DNA of 64,000 nt from Patescibacteria group bacterium (GTDB taxonomy: Bacteria > Patescibacteriota > Minisyncoccia > Phycocordibacterales > UBA9973): contig JAGWUB010000001.1 of assembly GCA_028868715.1 (NCBI GenBank), forward strand, positions 183,206-247,205, given 5' to 3'. Below are positions 2,351-43,058 of this stretch, piece by piece. The notes beneath the pieces are model-generated. The model made no database searches, had not been told where the DNA came from, and saw only the letters and a program-made list of their open reading frames with translations. The position numbers and the translations under genes were made by a program. Within the stretch, counting starts at the first letter, position 1, and each line of letters begins with the position of its first letter.

Positions 2351-3762
2351 TTGATTTAAAAAAGTTAACAATTGAAAAAGCGCACCAGAGTCTTTTAAAT
2401 GGAGAATTTACTTGCCGAGAACTGACAGCAGCGTATCTGGAAGCTATCGATAAAAAAAATCCTGAACTGAATGCTTACCTAGAAATTTTTAATGATGCTC
2501 TTCTGCAGGCCGATCTTGCCGATAAAAAATTTAAAGACAAAACTGCCACCCTGCTTACCGGCATACCTTTTGCTATTAAGGACAACATTTTAATACAAGG
2601 TAATATTGCTTCGGCTGGTTCAAAAATTTTAGAAAATTATAAGGCGAGCTATGATGCGACGGTTATCAAAGATTTAAAAAAAGCTGGAGTAGTATTTTTA
2701 GGGCGCACAAATATGGATGAATTCGCCATGGGTTCTTCTACTCAAACTTCTGCCTATGGAGTGACTCGTAACCCCATAGATACTTCTAGAGTCCCTGGAG
2801 GGTCCTCTGGTGGTTCTGCAGCGGCGCTAGCCGGAGATATTGCTTTGGCTGCTCTAGGGACTGAGACCTGTGGTTCGGTTCGTGAACCTTCAGCCTTTTG
2901 TGGATTAGTCGGATTAAAGCCTACCTATGGAGCAGTTTCTAGGCATGGAATAATTGCTATGGGGAATTCTCTTGATCAGGTTTCTCCATTTGGAAAAGAC
3001 GTGCGGGATACCGAAATAATTTTTGATCTCTTGTCTCGACACGATGAAGAAGATAGTACTTCAGTTCCGGAAGATTTGCGTAAGGTAACAAATAAAACAA
3101 ATTCTAAAAAGATCGGTGTGCCTTGGCATCTCTTCTCCGAGGGAGTGGATAAAGAAGTAGCAGAGAATTTTAAAGAGTCCATAGAAAAACTCAAAAAAGC
3201 TGGGTATGAAATAGTGGATATAGAAATTCCATATTCAAAATATTCCTTGGCAGCATACTATATAATAATGCCAGCAGAAGTTTCTACAAACCTAGCTCGC
3301 TTTGATGGAATTCGCTATGGCTTTAGTTCTCCAGGGAAGGATTTAATGGAAGTTTATAAAAGTAGTCGAGCCAAAGGTTTTGGCAAGGAGGCTCGCCGAC
3401 GTATCTTGCTCGGTACCTATGTACTTTCTCATGGATATTATGACGCCTATTACAACAAGGCTATAAAAGTAAGAGAAAAAATAAAAGCTGAAATTATGAC
3501 TGCCTTCCAAAATGTTGATTATATTCTTACCCCGACGGTGCCAATGACAGCATTTAAGCTGGGTGAAAAAATGGATAACCCGGTGTCTATGTATCTGTGC
3601 GATATATTTTCGGCTCCAGCCAATTTGTCTGGAGTGCCCTCTATTGCTCTGCCTTCAGGCCGGTCAACCGAAGGCCTACCTTTCTCGATCCAGTTTATGG
3701 CACCACATTTTCGTGAGGATCTGCTATTTGAGATTGGTAAAAAATTTGAGGAAATTCAATAA
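2347..3762 (+). CDS. gatA: Glutamyl-tRNA(Gln) amidotransferase subunit A
   Basis: Amidase signature 'GGSSGGSAAA' with the GatA catalytic core. Length 471 aa. Confidence 0.9.
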   Translation: MIDLKKLTIEKAHQSLLNGEFTCRELTAAYLEAIDKKNPELNAYLEIFNDALLQADLADKKFKDKTATLLTGIPFAIKDNILIQGNIASAGSKILENYKASYDATVIKDLKKAGVVFLGRTNMDEFAMGSSTQTSAYGVTRNPIDTSRVPGGSSGGSAAALAGDIALAALGTETCGSVREPSAFCGLVGLKPTYGAVSRHGIIAMGNSLDQVSPFGKDVRDTEIIFDLLSRHDEEDSTSVPEDLRKVTNKTNSKKIGVPWHLFSEGVDKEVAENFKESIEKLKKAGYEIVDIEIPYSKYSLAAYYIIMPAEVSTNLARFDGIRYGFSSPGKDLMEVYKSSRAKGFGKEARRRILLGTYVLSHGYYDAYYNKAIKVREKIKAEIMTAFQNVDYILTPTVPMTAFKLGEKMDNPVSMYLCDIFSAPANLSGVPSIALPSGRSTEGLPFSIQFMAPHFREDLLFEIGKKFEEIQ

Positions 3763-4902: not shown

Positions 4903-4991
4903 TGGCGGAGAGAGCGAGATTCGAACTCGCGGTCCTTTTAAGGGACGACAGTTTAGTAAACTGTTGGTTTAAGCCACTCACCCATCTCTCC
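4903..4991 (-). tRNA. Type II (Ser-like) tRNA with unusual anticodon loop TTACTAA (ACU); CCA encoded
   Basis: Minus strand reads GGAGAGA...GCGAG-TTCGAAT-CTCGC-TCTCTCC-G-CCA, with a long variable arm and G73 discriminator. The anticodon stem is ACAGT/ACTGT. Confidence 0.6.
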
Positions 4992-5009: not shown

Positions 5010-5372
5010 TTAATTTTGCTTTTTTAGCAAGTCTCGTATTTCGATGAGCAATTTTTCTTGTCGGGTAAAATTTTGGACTTTATCGTCAACTTTACGAAAA
5101 GTATTTACAAATTTAACCAAGAGGAAAATACAGAAAGCAATAATAACAAAGTCGAGCGCGGCGCTAATAAAATTACCAATATTCAGCTGCCATAATTTAA
5201 GGTTACTAAATTCACTACCCTTCATAATCGGTTTTAGGGATGCGAGGACAATATCGTTTACAAATGAAGTGATAATTTTTTGAAAAGCCCCACCGATAAC
5301 AATACCGACAGCGAGGTCGATAACGTTGCCGTGCATTACAAACTCTTTAAATTCCTTAATAAAATTTTTCAT
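5010..5372 (-). CDS. mscL: Large-conductance mechanosensitive channel
   Basis: Encodes 120 aa with an 'IDLAVGIVIGGAF' TM1 and the MscL architecture. Confidence 0.85.
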   Translation of the reverse strand: MKNFIKEFKEFVMHGNVIDLAVGIVIGGAFQKIITSFVNDIVLASLKPIMKGSEFSNLKLWQLNIGNFISAALDFVIIAFCIFLLVKFVNTFRKVDDKVQNFTRQEKLLIEIRDLLKKQN

Positions 5373-21185: not shown

Positions 21186-21258
21186 TTCCAGATAAATAAA
21201 AGTAGAGTTATCCACAGTTTGATCTATTACAAGTCATTTTAATAGTACAATTAACTAT

Positions 21259-22819: not shown

Positions 22820-24028
22820 ATGTTATTTAACTATAAAGCAGTAGATCAAGGTGGAATCAACAAAGAGGGAGAGATTGATGCTCCTAATCGTGATTTGGCG
22901 ATAAGTGGTTTGCAACACCGAGGACTCGTGGTCATTTCCATAAAGAATGAGGATGAGAAAAAATCAATTTTTGAAATGTCTTTTTTTGACAAAGTATCAA
23001 ACAAAGATGTAGTCATTCTCTCTAGGCAAATTTCAACTTTATTTGAGGCTCAAGTTTCCGCTCTAAAGGCTTTTACTATGCTGGCAGCCAACTCTGAAAA
23101 GAAAACGCTAAGTCGCACTCTTACTCAAATAGGGGATGATCTCCAAGCAGGTGTCTCTATCTCTGGAGCACTTTCTCGCCACCCAGATGTATTTTCAGAT
23201 TTTTATATCAATATGGTCAAAGTCGGTGAGGAAACCGGAAAACTCAATCAAGTGTTTTTACATTTGGCCGATTATTTAGACCGTCAATATTCTCTTACCT
23301 CTAAAACTAGAAATGCGCTTATATATCCAGTGTTCGTTATTTTTACGTTTTTCGTGGTTATGACCCTTATGTTTACGATTGTTATCCCAAAACTTTCGTC
23401 AATTATTACGGACTCTGGTCAGCCAGTACCCTTTTTTACTCAAATAATTATAGGTATTTCTAATATATTTGTTCATTATGGTTTTCTGATTCTAATTTTC
23501 TTCGTATTTTTTGGTGTTTGGATCTGGCGACTTTCAGTTACTGAAAGAGGTAAAATTTACCTAGACAGTGTCCGTTTATCTATTCCAGGTGTGGGGAATT
23601 TGTATAAAAAATTATATCTTTCTAGAATAGCAGACAATATGGATACTATGCTTTCTTCAGGGGTGCCGATTCTGCGGGTGATAGAGATTACTTCTAAAGT
23701 TGTCGGTAGTCGTCTTTATAAAACACTCTTAGAAGAAGTATCCGATAATGTCAAAGCTGGTTTATCTATCTCGGCTGCCTTTGAAAAACATCCGGAACAA
23801 ATCCCAGGAATCATGGTGCAGATGATAAAGGTGGGAGAGGAGACAGGTTCATTAGGCTCTATTTTAAAAACTTTAGCTGAATTTTATAAGCGTGAGGTAG
23901 ATGGTGCGGTGGACACCTTGGTGGGCCTAATAGAGCCAGTTATGATCGTAGTTCTAGGACTAGGAGTAGGTATCCTTTTGGTATCTATCTTAATGCCTAT
24001 TTACAACATGGCTGGAAGTATTAGTTAG
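22820..24028 (+). CDS. pilC: Type IV pilus platform protein PilC (GspF family)
   Basis: Two GspF repeats, each followed by TM segments. Confidence 0.9.
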   Translation: MLFNYKAVDQGGINKEGEIDAPNRDLAISGLQHRGLVVISIKNEDEKKSIFEMSFFDKVSNKDVVILSRQISTLFEAQVSALKAFTMLAANSEKKTLSRTLTQIGDDLQAGVSISGALSRHPDVFSDFYINMVKVGEETGKLNQVFLHLADYLDRQYSLTSKTRNALIYPVFVIFTFFVVMTLMFTIVIPKLSSIITDSGQPVPFFTQIIIGISNIFVHYGFLILIFFVFFGVWIWRLSVTERGKIYLDSVRLSIPGVGNLYKKLYLSRIADNMDTMLSSGVPILRVIEITSKVVGSRLYKTLLEEVSDNVKAGLSISAAFEKHPEQIPGIMVQMIKVGEETGSLGSILKTLAEFYKREVDGAVDTLVGLIEPVMIVVLGLGVGILLVSILMPIYNMAGSIS

Positions 24029-24039
24029 GTAGGGTTGTG

Positions 24040-24352
24040 CCCCCACACCTATTGTTTTATAGCTTTAGGTCAATTAAAATATGTATTATTTATATATTTT
24101 AAAAAGTTTAAAGGATGAAAATTTATATATAGGTTCAACAAATGACCTAAAGCGAAGACTTTTAGAACATAATAAAGGTCTTTCTATGTCTACAAAATCT
24201 AGGAAACCATTTGAATTACGTTATTACGAAGCATATCATAAGGAGGTGGACGCTAGGCACAGAGAAGGTTCTCTTAAAAAAGATGGTCGTGCCTTAGGGC
24301 AATTAAAGAGACGAATTATTAAAAGTCTTCAATAAAACAATAGGTGTGGGGG
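24040..24352. mobile_element. GIY-YIG ORF bracketed by a perfect 21-bp inverted repeat (possible small mobile/homing cassette)
   Basis: 24040..24060 (cccccacacctattgttttat) is the exact reverse complement of 24332..24352. Confidence 0.5.
24081..24335 (+). CDS. GIY-YIG nuclease family protein
   Basis: 'YYLYILKS...LYIGSTNDLKRRLLEHN' GIY-YIG motif. Confidence 0.8.
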   Translation: MYYLYILKSLKDENLYIGSTNDLKRRLLEHNKGLSMSTKSRKPFELRYYEAYHKEVDARHREGSLKKDGRALGQLKRRIIKSLQ

Positions 24353-24389
24353 TGTGGATAACCCGTTTGCTTATATATTTGTGTTCCTA

Positions 24390-24398
24390 TGATATAAT
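24390..24398 (+). promoter_or_regulatory. Extended -10 promoter element (TGaTATAAT) upstream of pilin 1
   Basis: 'tgatataat' lies about 90 nt upstream of the pilin ATG. Confidence 0.4.
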
Positions 24399-24488
24399 AA
24401 GGGTATTAAAAAACAAGTCGATTATAAATTTATAAGTCATTATTAATAATTTCCGCCTAAGGCGGATCAGCCTAGGCTGAAAAATAGT

Positions 24489-24980
24489 ATGAAAAAAATT
24501 AATTTTAAAAGAGGTTTTACGTTGATTGAACTTTTGGTCGTTGTGGCTATCATTGGTATCTTGGCTTCAGTTGTGTTGGCATCGCTTAACACAGCTCGTT
24601 CAAAAGGTGCTGATGCTGCTGTTAAAGCAAACTTAGCAAACGCTCGTGCACAAGCTGCTCTATTTTATGATGCAAACAACAATTCATACATGGGTACTGT
24701 TGGTACTGCAAATGATGTATGTTTCAGCGGAGCTTTAGCTGGAGGAGTCACTGGTATTTATCCACTTGTTCTAGCTGCTGCTAGTGCTACAGGTGCAACA
24801 ATGGGTGCTGAAAATGCTTTGGAAACTACAACCACTGCTGTATGTGACCCAGCTGCTAGTACATGGGTGGCTCAAGCCCCTCTAAAGGCTACTGCCGGAA
24901 CCTATTGGTGTGTTGACAGTACAGGTACTTCCAAGCAAGAAGCTGCTGTATTGGCTGCAAACGCAACATCTTGTCCTTAA
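24489..24980 (+). CDS. pilA: Type IV pilin (prepilin)
   Basis: Class III signal 'KRGFTLIELLVVVAIIGILA' and a C-terminal Cys pair. Confidence 0.85.
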   Translation: MKKINFKRGFTLIELLVVVAIIGILASVVLASLNTARSKGADAAVKANLANARAQAALFYDANNNSYMGTVGTANDVCFSGALAGGVTGIYPLVLAAASATGATMGAENALETTTTAVCDPAASTWVAQAPLKATAGTYWCVDSTGTSKQEAAVLAANATSCP

Positions 24981-25002
24981 TCTAATACTTAGTTTTTCCT
25001 TA

Positions 25003-25040
25003 AAAAACCACCCCTGTTTATGAACAGGGGTGGTTTTTGT
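25003..25040 (+). terminator. Rho-independent terminator after pilin 1
   Basis: aaaaaccacccctg / caggggtggttttt hairpin followed by a T-run. Confidence 0.75.
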
Positions 25041-25089
25041 TTGTATAAGTGCATGGTATAATAAAGTGGATTATAAATTAATTCATTTT

Positions 25090-25575
25090 ATGAAAAGTCA
25101 AAAAATATTTAAAAGAGGTTTCACTTTAATCGAACTTTTGGTCGTTGTGGCTATCATTGGTATCTTGGCTTCAGTTGTGTTGGCATCGCTTAACAGCGCA
25201 AGAGCAAAGGGTACTGACGCGGCAATAAAAGGCACTCTTAGTAATTCACGTTCCCAAGCTGCATTATTTTACGATGATCATACTCAAGTATTTACCGGCG
25301 TATGCGATCCTGGCGGCGGCATTCATTCGATGATCTTAAGTGCTGCAGAAAAGCTTAACCAATCATCTCCATCTGTGGGGATAAACACTGATCCTTTTGT
25401 TTACGATTCTACTGGTGCTGTAGGAGCTGCAGTGTGTCATGATAGTGATACAGCATGGGCAGCCATTGTGTCTCTAAAGGCGCCAGCGACGCCTAGTGCT
25501 GGCTGGTGCGTAGATTCCACTGGAGCTTCTAGAGAAGCTACTTCTTTGGCCGCAAGCGCTACCGTTTGTCCATAG
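25090..25575 (+). CDS. Type IV pilin paralog 2
   Basis: 'MKSQKIFKRGFTLIELLVVVAIIGILA' signal. Shares an identical 65-nt stretch with pilin 1. Confidence 0.8.
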   Translation: MKSQKIFKRGFTLIELLVVVAIIGILASVVLASLNSARAKGTDAAIKGTLSNSRSQAALFYDDHTQVFTGVCDPGGGIHSMILSAAEKLNQSSPSVGINTDPFVYDSTGAVGAAVCHDSDTAWAAIVSLKAPATPSAGWCVDSTGASREATSLAASATVCP

Positions 25576-25601
25576 TTATTACTACTTTAATTATTTACCT
25601 T

Positions 25602-26081
25602 ATGAAAAAATTTGGTTTTAAAAGAGGTTTTACGTTGATTGAACTTTTGGTGGTCGTAGCTATTATCGGTGTTTTAGCTGCAGTTGTTTTAGCTACGTTA
25701 AATAGTGCTAGGAATAAAGGTGGCGATGCAGCAGTGAAAGCAAATTTAAAAAACGCAGTCACTCAAGGAGAAGTTATTTATAGTACTAGGACTGCGAATA
25801 CAAGTACATATACTGGCGCTTGCACTACTGGGGTTATCGCTGGTGAAACTGTAATAACCGGAGTTGGCGGATTAGTTTTAGCAGCGGCCAAAGCGAATGG
25901 TCTAGCTAGTTATACCACGAATGGTACCGGGACATTAGCAACTGCAACCTGTAATGATAGTGCTAGCGCTTGGGCAGCCGAAGTGCCACTTAAAGCTGTT
26001 AGTGGTATGTGGTGTTCGGACAGTACTGGAAAATCTAAGCAAGAAGCTGGCACAATTGGTGCTGGAACCGTTTGTGCTTAA
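25602..26081 (+). CDS. Type IV pilin paralog 3
   Basis: 'MKKFGFKRGFTLIELLVVVAIIGVLA' and a C-terminal 'WCSDSTGKSK...TVCA'. Confidence 0.8.
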   Translation: MKKFGFKRGFTLIELLVVVAIIGVLAAVVLATLNSARNKGGDAAVKANLKNAVTQGEVIYSTRTANTSTYTGACTTGVIAGETVITGVGGLVLAAAKANGLASYTTNGTGTLATATCNDSASAWAAEVPLKAVSGMWCSDSTGKSKQEAGTIGAGTVCA

Positions 26082-41278: not shown

Positions 41279-43039
41279 ATGAACAGAGCATCTGAACAAT
41301 CACGAATAAAGTTCATCGCTTACAGCCGAAAAAGCACGGAGAGCGAAGACCGCCAGGTGCTCTCTTTGAATGACCAGAAGCGCGAACTTGAAGACGTACA
41401 GGCAAAAGAGAAGCTGCACGTTGTTGAGAAGTATCTCGGAGACAAGATAGGAGAAAGCCAGTCAGCCTATAAGCGCGGCAGACCTATTTTCGGGCACGTA
41501 ATGGAGCAAATAGAGGCTGGCAAAGCCAATGGTTTGCTTGTGTGGCATCCGAACCGCCTTGCACGCAATGCTTTTGATGGTGGTTGGATTATCACGGCAA
41601 TGGACGAAGGAAAGTTGCTGGAGATACGAACTCCGCAGAAGACCTACCATCACGACAATTCCGATGATAAGTTTTTCCTTCAACTTGAGTTCGGAATGGC
41701 AAAGAAGTCATCCGACGACAACAGCACTGCCGTAAAGCGCGGACTGAAAACAAAAGTCGGGATGGGTTGGTATCCGTCATACGCCCCACTCGGCTATCTC
41801 AACACCAAAGACAAAGACCTCAAAGGCAGCAATCATATTCAGATTGACCCAGAACGCTATCAAATTGTTCGTAAGATGTGGGACTTGATGCTCACGGGCA
41901 GATACACACCTCCAGAGATTTTGAGAATGGCAAACAAGCAGTGGAAGTTGAAGACGCGGACATCAAAGAAACGCCCTCTGCCTAAAGAAATGGCACGCAG
42001 TCATATCTATCGCATTTTCACCAACCCGTTTTACTGTGGATGGTTTGAATATGGCAAGCCAGTTCTTCAAGAAGACGGTACGCGACGTAAGCCGTGGTAC
42101 AAAGGCATTCACCAGCCGATGATAACGGTGGAAGAGTACGACCTCGTACAGAAACTTCTCAAAGAGAAAGGACGACCGCGCCCGAAGCGTCATCGTTTCG
42201 CTTTCACTGGTTTGATGCGCTGCGGCAACTGTGGTGCGATGATAACAGCGGAAGAGAAGATAAAGAAACAAAAGAACGGCAACGTGCATCATTACGTTTA
42301 CTATCGCTGCACGAAACGCAAGGATGAAAATTGTCCAGAGAAAACCGTCGAGCTGAAAGAATTGTCCAATCAGATTGATGATGTAATAAAAACAATTACC
42401 GTTTCGGAAGATTTCAAAGACTGGGGACTCCAGTATCTCCACGAAGTCCGCAAGGAAGAAGCAAAGACTCACGAAGCGGTGCAGAGAAGTAAGCAGAACG
42501 ATTCGCTGCGCATCACAAAGCAACTCGACAGCCTGGTGCTCAAGTACGCATCACCAGAGAATGCCAGTGGCGAGATTATCAGCGACATTGAGTTCCAGGG
42601 CTTGAAGAAGCGGTTGCTCGATGAAAAAGCAAGAATCACTAACGAGCTGCAAGAGCAGCACAAGGTGTTTGAGGACTGGCTGGATATGAGCGAGCGCACC
42701 TTCAATTTCGCACGCTACGCGGGTCTGTGGTTCGCCCAGGGCGATATGGAAACGAAGAGAGCCGTATTTGCCTGTCTCGGTTCGCACCTGGTTATTAGCA
42801 GCCAAAAACTCAACGTGCAGCTACGCAAGCCGTTCACTATGGTGTTCAAGAAGCTCGCGGAAGCGGAGAAGGAACTTGCCCAGGTTAGAACCTCTCTTGA
42901 ACCACAAAAAGCAGAAAACGCCCTCATAAAACAAAACAATCTTGCACTTGTCGTGCAAAATTGTTCAAACTGGCGGAGGCGGAGAGATTCGAACTCTCGA
43001 TACCTTTCGGTATGCCACCTTTCCAAGGTGGTGGAATAA
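41279..43039 (+). CDS. Large serine recombinase (integrase)
   Basis: N-terminal 'IAYSRKSTESEDRQVLSLNDQ', a recombinase domain, a Zn ribbon 'CGNCGAM...C' and a C-terminal coiled coil. The last ~23 codons read through the antisense of tRNA-Ser. Confidence 0.8.
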   Translation: MNRASEQSRIKFIAYSRKSTESEDRQVLSLNDQKRELEDVQAKEKLHVVEKYLGDKIGESQSAYKRGRPIFGHVMEQIEAGKANGLLVWHPNRLARNAFDGGWIITAMDEGKLLEIRTPQKTYHHDNSDDKFFLQLEFGMAKKSSDDNSTAVKRGLKTKVGMGWYPSYAPLGYLNTKDKDLKGSNHIQIDPERYQIVRKMWDLMLTGRYTPPEILRMANKQWKLKTRTSKKRPLPKEMARSHIYRIFTNPFYCGWFEYGKPVLQEDGTRRKPWYKGIHQPMITVEEYDLVQKLLKEKGRPRPKRHRFAFTGLMRCGNCGAMITAEEKIKKQKNGNVHHYVYYRCTKRKDENCPEKTVELKELSNQIDDVIKTITVSEDFKDWGLQYLHEVRKEEAKTHEAVQRSKQNDSLRITKQLDSLVLKYASPENASGEIISDIEFQGLKKRLLDEKARITNELQEQHKVFEDWLDMSERTFNFARYAGLWFAQGDMETKRAVFACLGSHLVISSQKLNVQLRKPFTMVFKKLAEAEKELAQVRTSLEPQKAENALIKQNNLALVVQNCSNWRRRRDSNSRYLSVCHLSKVVE

Positions 43040-43058
43040 ACCGCTATCCGACGCCTCC
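42971..43058 (-). tRNA. tRNA-Ser (anticodon GGA), CCA encoded
   Basis: Acceptor GGAGGCG/CGCCTCC. Anticodon arm CCACC-TTGGAAA-GGTGG. Variable arm ATACC-GAAA-GGTAT. T-arm GAGAG-TTCGAAT-CTCTC. Confidence 0.8.

Follow-up and report, generated by a model that had tools for sequence, protein, structure and literature searches.

The window analysed here, a stretch of 64,000 nucleotides (64 kb) from contig JAGWUB010000001.1 of a Patescibacteria group bacterium, contains a small open reading frame (ORF) for a GIY-YIG nuclease of 84 amino acids (aa), which is located between a gene encoding a PilC-type T2SSF protein (22820..24028), on its 5' side, and, on its 3' side, three tandem pilin-like genes with N-methylation motifs followed by a prepilin peptidase gene. 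The ORF is bracketed by a 21-nucleotide (nt) inverted repeat, with an exact CCCCCACACCTATTGTTTTAT at 24040-24060 and its perfect reverse complement at 24332-24352, and its TAA stop codon (24333-24335) lies within the right arm. A preliminary description of this DNA had reported such a perfect repeat around an 84-aa GIY-YIG ORF with the stop in the right arm, and all of these features were recovered where it had placed them. The pairing of the arms grows to 23 nt if one mismatch is allowed, and the 21-mer, searched with up to three mismatches, occurs at just these two sites of the window, none being expected from shuffled sequences. The GIY-YIG gene is the sole ORF of the segment, with no second one in the ORF list. 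The results presented below indicate that the segment 24040-24352 is very probably a mobile element with inverted repeats and target duplications, whose parts and immediate surroundings are as follows.

24036..24039, no strand: left copy of the target-site duplication, TGTG, identical to 24353-24356 and abutting the left repeat.
24040..24352, plus strand: whole element, 313 base pairs (bp) from repeat end to repeat end; its deletion restores an empty site, and its relatives measure 283-356 bp.
24040..24060, plus strand: left terminal inverted repeat, whose outer 10 nt, CCCCCACACC, are the conserved core of the family and whose inner part co-varies with the right arm.
24062..24075, plus strand: 5' strand of stem B, immediately inside the left repeat and within the untranslated leader, pairing with 24140-24153.
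24081..24335, plus strand: gene for the 84-aa stand-alone GIY-YIG nuclease, Slx1/UPF0213-like branch (Pfam PF01541, structures, conservation).
24140..24153, plus strand: 3' strand of stem B, codons 20-25 (conserved T-N-D-L-K-R motif), recognised by pairing and co-variation.
24154..24164, plus strand: 5' strand of stem C, codons 25-28, with a perfect 11-nt complement at 24320-24330.
24320..24330, plus strand: 3' strand of stem C, within the ORF's final codons, pairing with 24154-24164.
24332..24352, plus strand: right terminal inverted repeat, holding the stop codon 24333-24335; the overlap of stop and repeat is kept across the family.
24353..24356, no strand: right copy of the target-site duplication, TGTG, identical to 24036-24039.
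24353..24362, plus strand: host target motif TGTGGATAAC with the 9-mer TGTGGATAA, present at the same position in 66 of 71 orthologous pilC-pilin junctions.
24393..24398, plus strand: TATAAT of the presumed pilin promoter, outside the element and given as context, aligning with the conserved GATATAAT/GTTATAAT of related junctions.

The preliminary description had proposed a miniature transposable cassette, and the locus was compared with its counterparts in relatives. A metagenome scan with the PilC protein of the window yielded 80 orthologous loci (72-83% protein identity). None of the 78 loci with a readable pilC end carried a GIY-YIG ORF at the pilC-pilin junction, and in the 71 loci that also reach the pilin start (complete junctions) the insertion position of the element was occupied in 66 cases by an uninterrupted TGTGGATAA(C), followed by a T-rich stretch and then a conserved TATAAT. 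Deletion of 24040-24356, i.e. of the element together with one TGTG, regenerates the conserved empty site GGGTTGTGGATAACCC with an intact TGTGGATAAC motif. After this deletion the intergenic region has 143 nt, compared with a median of 151 nt in the 71 related junctions, and the junction reads GGGTTGTGGATAACCCGTTTGC, which aligns with the closest empty junction, cccTGTGGATAACCCATTTGC (locus L082). Because of the duplication, the target motif and the pilin promoter both stay intact downstream of the element.

Repeat-core sequence of any kind was present in only 1 of the 71 complete junctions. Because the repeats are thus missing from 70 of the 71 orthologous junctions, they are no host terminator or insulator, which disposes of the conserved bidirectional terminator that the preliminary description had envisaged for relatives devoid of the ORF. 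An intrinsic terminator at the window locus was also considered and rejected, as the arms carry no T-run terminator-like site and the core is absent from those 70 junctions. At one cassette-less locus (L099) the first 20 nt past the pilC stop, GGTGTGGGGGTGTGGATAAC, contain a solo 10-nt right-repeat core directly before the target motif, as at the right junction of the window; this solo core could be a deletion remnant, a footprint or a local duplication.

Outside the window, the element was found at a pilC-pilin junction in one lineage only (L162 and L163; 90% protein identity), with the identical TGTG duplication. The similarity between the window and L162 falls off exactly at the repeats. 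The nucleotide identity is 89% in the element, 77% in pilC and 81.5% in pilT, and the synonymous divergence is 0.45 for the ORF of the element (24081-24332 of the window versus 4001-4252 of L162), 1.78 for pilC and 1.53 for pilT. Among the codons with a conserved amino acid, 17.6% were changed in the element and 46-50% in the flanking genes (Fisher p=2.5e-7). Likewise, a comparison of the element-bearing loci L007 and L010 showed an element far less diverged than its flanks. This low divergence may be due to renewed insertion at a hot spot, to exchange between elements or to a constraint that acts on the fold as a whole.

The element belongs to a family. Hundreds of close relatives of the 84-aa protein (70-90% identity, nearly all of 84 aa) were found in Paceibacteria, Nomurabacteria and other Patescibacteria, and one Patescibacteria metagenome-assembled genome has an annotated gene for the identical protein. 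We took 80 homologous loci (the best 80 hits) from species-representative genomes, and most of them showed an inverted repeat at the same two places, the left arm preceding the ATG by 14-57 nt and the right arm lying across the stop codon. This layout was shared by 44 distinct ORF-bearing elements from about 44 other Patescibacteria genomes, which have a total length of 283-356 bp and encode proteins with 51-90% identity; the location of the stop codon within the right arm is a family-wide trait. The arms of the 44 elements have a mean length of 19.8 nt, with 39 mismatched pairs out of 869 and perfect arms in 16 elements. The outer core of the repeats is CCCCCACACC, with variants that include CCCGCACAC and CCCCCCACCAC, and the inner, A+T-rich part varies between elements, both arms changing together. 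As to the copy search that had been proposed for this locus, GIY-YIG ORFs with the same type of ends exist in dozens of genomes, and within the 64-kb window no further copy of the 21-mer or of its 10-nt core was found beyond chance, nor did tblastn detect a second GIY-YIG gene there.

Target-site duplications, whose presence the preliminary description had suggested checking without mentioning the TGTG copies, are not limited to the TGTG of the window. When the repeat ends were fixed by trimming the outer A/T pairs, 28 of 48 elements showed flanks with at least 4 identical nt against the repeats (exactly 4 nt in 26, 5 nt in 2), compared with a mean of 2.2 and a maximum of 7 in 1000 trials with shuffled pairings. 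The duplicated 4-mers are mostly A+T-rich (TTAT/ATAA, TTTA/TAAA, TTGA, TTCA, TATA). With duplications, cassette-less alleles and GIY-YIG ORFs with the same ends elsewhere, the idea of a miniature transposable cassette is borne out.

The genes neighbouring the family elements split into 211 clusters, and the contexts are therefore unrelated. Because the element sits at unrelated loci in other genomes, the link to pilin recombination or variation that had been suggested from its position between pilus and pilin genes is not supported. Some positions are shared between genomes in differing form: an ORF-bearing element of L007 (2955-3273) occupies a site orthologous to those of L010 (2955-3272) and L013 in the opposite orientation, and a miniature element without an ORF, of about 70 nt, lies at the same site of two syntenic genomes with its interior reverse-complemented (L041 3051-3119 versus L062 1657-1725). 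Such opposite orientations at one orthologous site could result from inversion in place between the repeats or from repeated insertion. As a separate observation, tRNA genes adjoin several elements, at the repeat ends in L029, L039, L048 and L056 and just downstream of the ORF in L002, L078 and L080. In L029, L048 and L056 the outer repeat nucleotides coincide with the 5' or 3' acceptor end of the tRNA, and the element of L029 has 11 nt from the 5' end of the tRNA, GGAGGCGTGCC, on either side.

The insertion sites share a preferred sequence. The 8-mer GTGGATAA/TTATCCAC, or a one-base shift of it, was present in 13 of 41 reconstructed insertion sites and in 0.3% of random 24-mers, which amounts to an enrichment of the TTATCCAC-type box of about 100-fold. 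The usual duplication is TTAT within G-TTAT-CCACA; therefore, the cut falls exactly where the target starts to resemble the end of the element itself (TTAT|CCCCCACACC). The 9-mer TGTGGATAA is identical to the DnaA-box consensus of E. coli. A replication origin at the locus was considered and rejected, since TGTGGATAA is conserved upstream of the pilin TATAAT in 66 of the 71 related junctions. TGTGGATAAC looks like a promoter-proximal regulatory motif of these bacteria. A second exact copy of it lies at 21207-21216 on the minus strand of the window, in the intergenic region between pilB and a response regulator gene.

The 84-aa protein matched Pfam PF01541 with E=3.2e-16 and 59.8 bits (cut-off 22.6). 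Residues Y5, Y16, G18, R26, H30 and E50, which include the GIY and YIG tyrosines and the catalytic arginine and glutamate, were at least 95% conserved in 75 homologues and invariant in two further protein alignments (A2 and A3). The closest phmmer matches were the UPF0213 proteins BH0048 (1zg2; E=5e-4) and EF2693 (1ywl; 1.5e-3), followed by Slx1 (0.1). An AlphaFold model with a mean pLDDT (the predicted local confidence) of 79 showed the order beta-beta-alpha-alpha-beta-alpha-alpha expected for the catalytic domain, and Foldseek ranked 1zg2, 1ywl and Slx1 (4xlg) before I-TevI, with modest TM-scores of 0.43-0.47. On sequence and model grounds the protein is best placed in the Slx1/UPF0213-like branch, closer than to the UvrC or I-TevI branches; because the phmmer E-values are weak, the assignment is to the branch and not to an orthologous group. 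The ratio of nonsynonymous to synonymous divergence (dN/dS) is about 0.12 relative to the closest relative. From the Pfam match, the catalytic residues, the fold and this ratio, the protein is apparently a working nuclease. A classification from 2006 assigned bacterial proteins of this kind to the Slx-1 cluster, with a predicted role in repair, Slx1 being a structure-specific nuclease that cuts branched DNA (PMC1564403).

GIY-YIG is at the same time a classical homing-endonuclease fold (PMC1564403), and the preliminary description had also spoken of a homing cassette. According to this explanation, a free-standing homing endonuclease gene would cleave an uninterrupted TGTGGATAAC-type site and be copied in by repair, the repeats being incidental or structural. 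Both the strong preference for a target motif and the filling of the same site in diverged lineages by elements more alike than their flanks would suit it. Homing, however, needs flanking homology and leaves neither repeats nor duplications, whereas here the similarity ends at the repeats and 4-bp duplications are the rule; the insertion sites are many and unrelated, and miniature elements with the same ends and no ORF also insert. Furthermore, no DNA-binding extension (NUMOD, helix-turn-helix) was found in the 84-aa protein, which thus lacks the DNA-binding domains of the I-TevI type, and the match to TIGR01453, the group I intron endonuclease family, covers residues 4-40 only and stays at 25.4 bits, below the cut-off of 56. 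Rfam and ARAGORN revealed no intron or tRNA at the locus. Taken together, these results make homing a very improbable explanation, and on this point the preliminary description was not sustained.

The two repeats are part of a larger fold. Folded as single-stranded DNA, 24036-24356 of the window gave a three-way junction of -54.3 kcal/mol (z=-7.7), in which stem A consists of the two repeats, stem B of 24062-24075/24140-24153 and stem C of 24154-24164/24320-24330. In the alignment of the 44 elements the outer repeat helix (helix 1) was 96.6% paired, with changes on both sides in 12 of 16 pairs, and the co-variation score of the arms was 0.23, compared with 0.087 for shuffles (0.23 reached in 0 of 500), whereas slid controls gave 0.04-0.07. 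In the 20 elements of the clade to which the window element belongs, stem B has nine core pairs that were nearly always Watson-Crick, and six of these pairs had 5-9 compensatory changes (variants CTGAAG/CTTCAG, TTGAGA/TCTCAA, TTACGA/TCGTAA and TTGCGT/ACGCAA). Because the stem B pairs change in compensation, the leader tracks the codon changes. Stem C was 89% Watson-Crick in this clade, with compensatory variants such as AGGC/GCCT, and 33.7% in a second clade.

Whether this fold acts as DNA or RNA was judged from the kind of mismatches and from the likely start of the mRNA. The arm mismatches comprise 9 G-T and 19 A-C pairs, and few G-T pairs occur in stems B and C. A TATAAT is conserved 7-8 nt upstream of the ATG in relatives, and because of its position the mRNA of the element would start downstream of the left strands of both stem A and stem B. 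The lack of a G-T excess and this start position together speak, tentatively, for pairing at the DNA level.

The same data bear on an RNA-level function, in which the repeats would serve as a terminator, a processing site, an insulator between pilC and pilin or a fold-back control of translation. Some insertion sequences are known to inhibit read-through transcripts by fold-back, the fold has a high stability, as its z of -7.7 indicates, and the compensatory changes in stems B and C involve coding sequence, all of which would be in line with such a function. Nevertheless, G-T pairs are not favoured over A-C mismatches, which also speaks against the RNA stem isolating pilC from pilin transcription that had been put forward earlier; a transcript started at the TATAAT would lack the left strand of stem A and that of stem B; nearly all orthologous junctions are devoid of the repeats; and the duplications and empty sites would be left unexplained. 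Rfam 15 gave no match in the window at the gathering threshold and none at E<=1 within 23950-24500. We therefore regard an RNA-level function as extremely unlikely.

Besides the ORF-bearing elements, miniature elements with the same ends and no ORF were found near the GIY-YIG genes, and one more in the unselected pilC loci. The shortest are palindromes of 28-47 nt, the larger units have about 70 nt, 136 nt or as many as 190 nt, and most have 4-nt duplications. In L008 and L020 the insertions are nested, each with an ORF-less element inserted in the CATATAAT box of the GIY-YIG element's own leader, with a TATA duplication. Six of the ORF-less elements of about 70 nt fold into a 21-23-bp stem with two 5-bp hairpins, again a three-way junction (z from -8 to -11), and Rfam gave only sub-threshold, microRNA-like hairpin matches for the ORF-less elements. 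These relatives at other loci fit the definition of a MITE (a miniature transposable element with inverted repeats); the window element does not, as it encodes a conserved protein.

Several observations weigh against a mobile element driven by its own nuclease. A clean 4-nt duplication is missing in 20 of the 48 elements, and the insertion in the window is itself atypical, with TGTG duplicated on the other side of the same motif in place of the usual TTAT/ATAA. The second clade, which has shorter leaders, forms stem A only, stems B and C being absent. The copy number is low, with never more than one copy per assembly among the best 80 hits and a single ORF-less element in 409 kb of unselected related DNA. 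Two exact protein variants (P0060 and P0007) were constantly found in the same context, on 15-24 contigs, so that recent transposition was rejected for them and the current activity appears to be low. The protein is an 84-aa catalytic domain without an evident DNA-binding or strand-joining module, and the ORF-less elements have only the ends in common with the ORF-bearing ones. Finally, in nine genomes (L038, L040-L043, L045, L052, L057 and L062; about 3000-3500 of each locus) the GIY-YIG ORF lacks a left repeat. In these nine it is found in the str operon, in antisense orientation, with rpsG (S7) on one side and fusA (EF-G) on the other and one or two ORF-less elements separating it from rpsG, and these copies may be domesticated or immobilised.

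Part of these observations would be expected if the element were a non-autonomous MITE with the GIY-YIG gene as cargo, moved by a conventional transposase encoded elsewhere in the genome. The bare catalytic domain, the sharing of just the ends between ORF-less and ORF-bearing elements, and the low copy number with positions fixed within species would all agree with it, and 4-bp duplications together with C-rich ends are known from some insertion-sequence families. A larger partner was not found, as no element of 0.7-6 kb with these ends is present in the 0.99 Mb searched, a set to which the 3-kb flanks of the 80 GIY-YIG loci belong. Moreover, the compact layout of repeat, ORF and stop is kept over 44 elements with 51-90% identity, a constancy that one would not expect of cargo; purifying selection acts on the ORF, whose active site is intact; and the ORF-less elements cluster beside the GIY-YIG gene. 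The ORF of the element had no match to a DDE, DEDD, HUH, serine or tyrosine transposase in Pfam, NCBIfam or PHROGs. On this evidence a cargo gene is unlikely, though less so than the other alternatives to a nuclease-driven element.

A further alternative is a domesticated, RAYT-like host gene, present in single copy and flanked by its own palindromic repeats, which the host keeps for some benefit and which maintains or occasionally moves a few palindromic elements. This would account for the one copy at most per assembly among the best 80 hits, for its fixed position in a species, for the strong conservation of the protein, for an insertion held in common with a relative in which synonymous sites of the flanking genes have reached saturation, and for the nine genomes with the syntenic rpsG-fusA position, no left repeat and ORF-less elements alongside. 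In contrast, the gene is missing at the orthologous site in the great majority of close relatives and occupies unrelated sites in different genomes; with about 1 per 400 kb, the palindromic elements are scarce in comparison with populations of repetitive extragenic palindromes (REPs); and the divergence of the element is far lower than that of its flanks, as would follow from a later arrival or an exchange. Such a host gene is accordingly an improbable explanation.

The account that we favour, and consider reasonably probable as a whole, is that of a 313-bp transposable element inserted in a host motif, with the nuclease as its mobility enzyme; the part of it that assigns the movement to the GIY-YIG protein is somewhat less secure but still leans towards probable. 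According to this account, the element would have inserted into TGTGGATAAC just upstream of the pilin promoter, with duplication of 4 bp of the target (TGTG). The nuclease would recognise the C-rich repeat end and targets that resemble it, e.g. the CCACAC part of TTATCCACAC, and would cut at the repeat boundary with an offset of 4 nt, in the element's own ends and in targets alike, host repair and ligation completing the move. Because of the Slx1-like ancestry, the junction fold and the absence of tolerance for G-T pairs, recognition of structure is suggested, and an Slx1-like enzyme might recognise the folded ends or the three-way junction; that the enzyme recognises folded single-stranded DNA, and not RNA, is a tentative proposal that we hold to be rather doubtful. 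By mimicking a host promoter-proximal motif (GGTGTGG-ATAAC, identical to a DnaA box), the ends would direct insertion to places where the harm is small. The family may move by a new enzymatic route. The stronger claim, that the 84-aa nuclease is the sole element-encoded protein needed and that these elements represent a novel class of prokaryotic transposons, smaller than any other that codes for a protein (about 290-320 bp), is plausible and falls a little short of probable.

If the nuclease does drive the movement, it would constitute a new enzyme class for prokaryotic DNA transposition and would set the lower size limit of an autonomous element at about 300 bp and 84 codons. It would likewise give a role in mobile elements to the widespread, uncharacterised stand-alone Slx1/UPF0213-like proteins, and a very small nuclease specific for sequence or structure would be a possible tool. 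The genomes of Patescibacteria are very small and poor in classical insertion sequences, and a mobile element that targets a conserved promoter-proximal motif would provide a trackable marker of gene flow in these bacteria. Even if the nuclease were cargo, the family would clearly illustrate how compensatory changes, some of them within coding sequence, keep repeats and internal stems complementary.

Some further features were noted along the way. The three pilin paralogues (24489-26081 of the window) are nearly identical in their N-terminal methylation and transmembrane segments and diverge in their C-terminal domains, with the prepilin peptidase gene directly after them. The pilin leader (24399-24488) is conserved across the related junctions, with ATTAAAAAnAAGTCGA just after the TATAAT and then two short hairpins (TCCGCCTAAGGCGGA and TCAGCCTAGGCTGA in the window), and may be a structure of the 5' untranslated region of the pilin mRNA. 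Elsewhere in the window, ARAGORN called a tRNA-Ser with the unusual anticodon ACT at 4903-4991 (minus strand), and an ORF of 586 aa (41279-43039, plus strand) overlaps a tRNA-Ser(GGA) gene on the opposite strand (42971-43058, minus strand), on account of which the 3' end of this ORF is probably over-called. Among the family loci, L040 contains at 5234-5297 (plus strand) a DUF3800-II RNA motif of Rfam above the gathering score (64.5 bits, E=3e-11), which is unrelated to the element. A scan of IMG/VR for viral carriage of the element gave only three distant or partial matches.

Compared with known systems, the element resembles insertion sequences and MITEs in its inverted repeats, short duplications, empty sites and single ORF ending in the right repeat, as well as in the existence of ORF-less derivatives with the ends alone in common and of nested insertions. 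It differs from insertion sequences in that its protein is an 84-aa GIY-YIG domain and not a DDE, HUH, serine or tyrosine enzyme, in that its repeats are nearly perfectly complementary and co-vary, and in its low copy number. The smallest known insertion sequences have roughly 600-700 bp, and at 283-356 bp the family elements are about half that size. Correia elements of Neisseria are likewise small and bounded by repeats, with short AT-rich duplications, intergenic or promoter-proximal locations and long hairpins, whereas they have no known cognate protein and hundreds of copies, and here a coding master copy exists in low number.

With the REP/REPIN-RAYT systems the element has in common a single-copy gene between two inverted, palindrome-forming repeats, ORF-less hairpins at other sites and long persistence. 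RAYTs are HUH/Y1 enzymes, however, and their REPs occur in tens to hundreds of copies per genome without target duplications, whereas the element has a GIY-YIG nuclease, rare ORF-less copies, 4-bp duplications and a locus that changes between species. Integron attC sites and the ends of IS200/IS605 elements also rely on intrastrand pairing over primary sequence, with compensatory change, although the single-strand idea is an inference in our case; those systems use a tyrosine recombinase and a HUH transposase, respectively, and produce no duplications.

As for the enzyme, the GIY-YIG homing endonucleases (I-TevI and the Seg proteins of T4) share the catalytic fold and the character of selfish nuclease genes with a site preference, whereas the element has no NUMOD or helix-turn-helix domain and no intron, and has repeats, duplications and non-homologous sites. 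The Slx1/UPF0213 (YhbQ-like) proteins are the closest by sequence and fold (1zg2, 1ywl, 4xlg), and their cutting of branched DNA would fit the three-way junction; unlike the nuclease of the element, they are described as repair or maintenance proteins, and a mobile unit bounded by repeats is not reported for them in the searchable literature. In full-text literature searches, no bacterial GIY-YIG element with repeats and duplications at its borders was found to have been described, Patescibacteria included. The element is an insertion sequence with MITE-like satellites in its behaviour, and its lifestyle recalls RAYT/REPIN systems, with an enzyme that belongs to neither.

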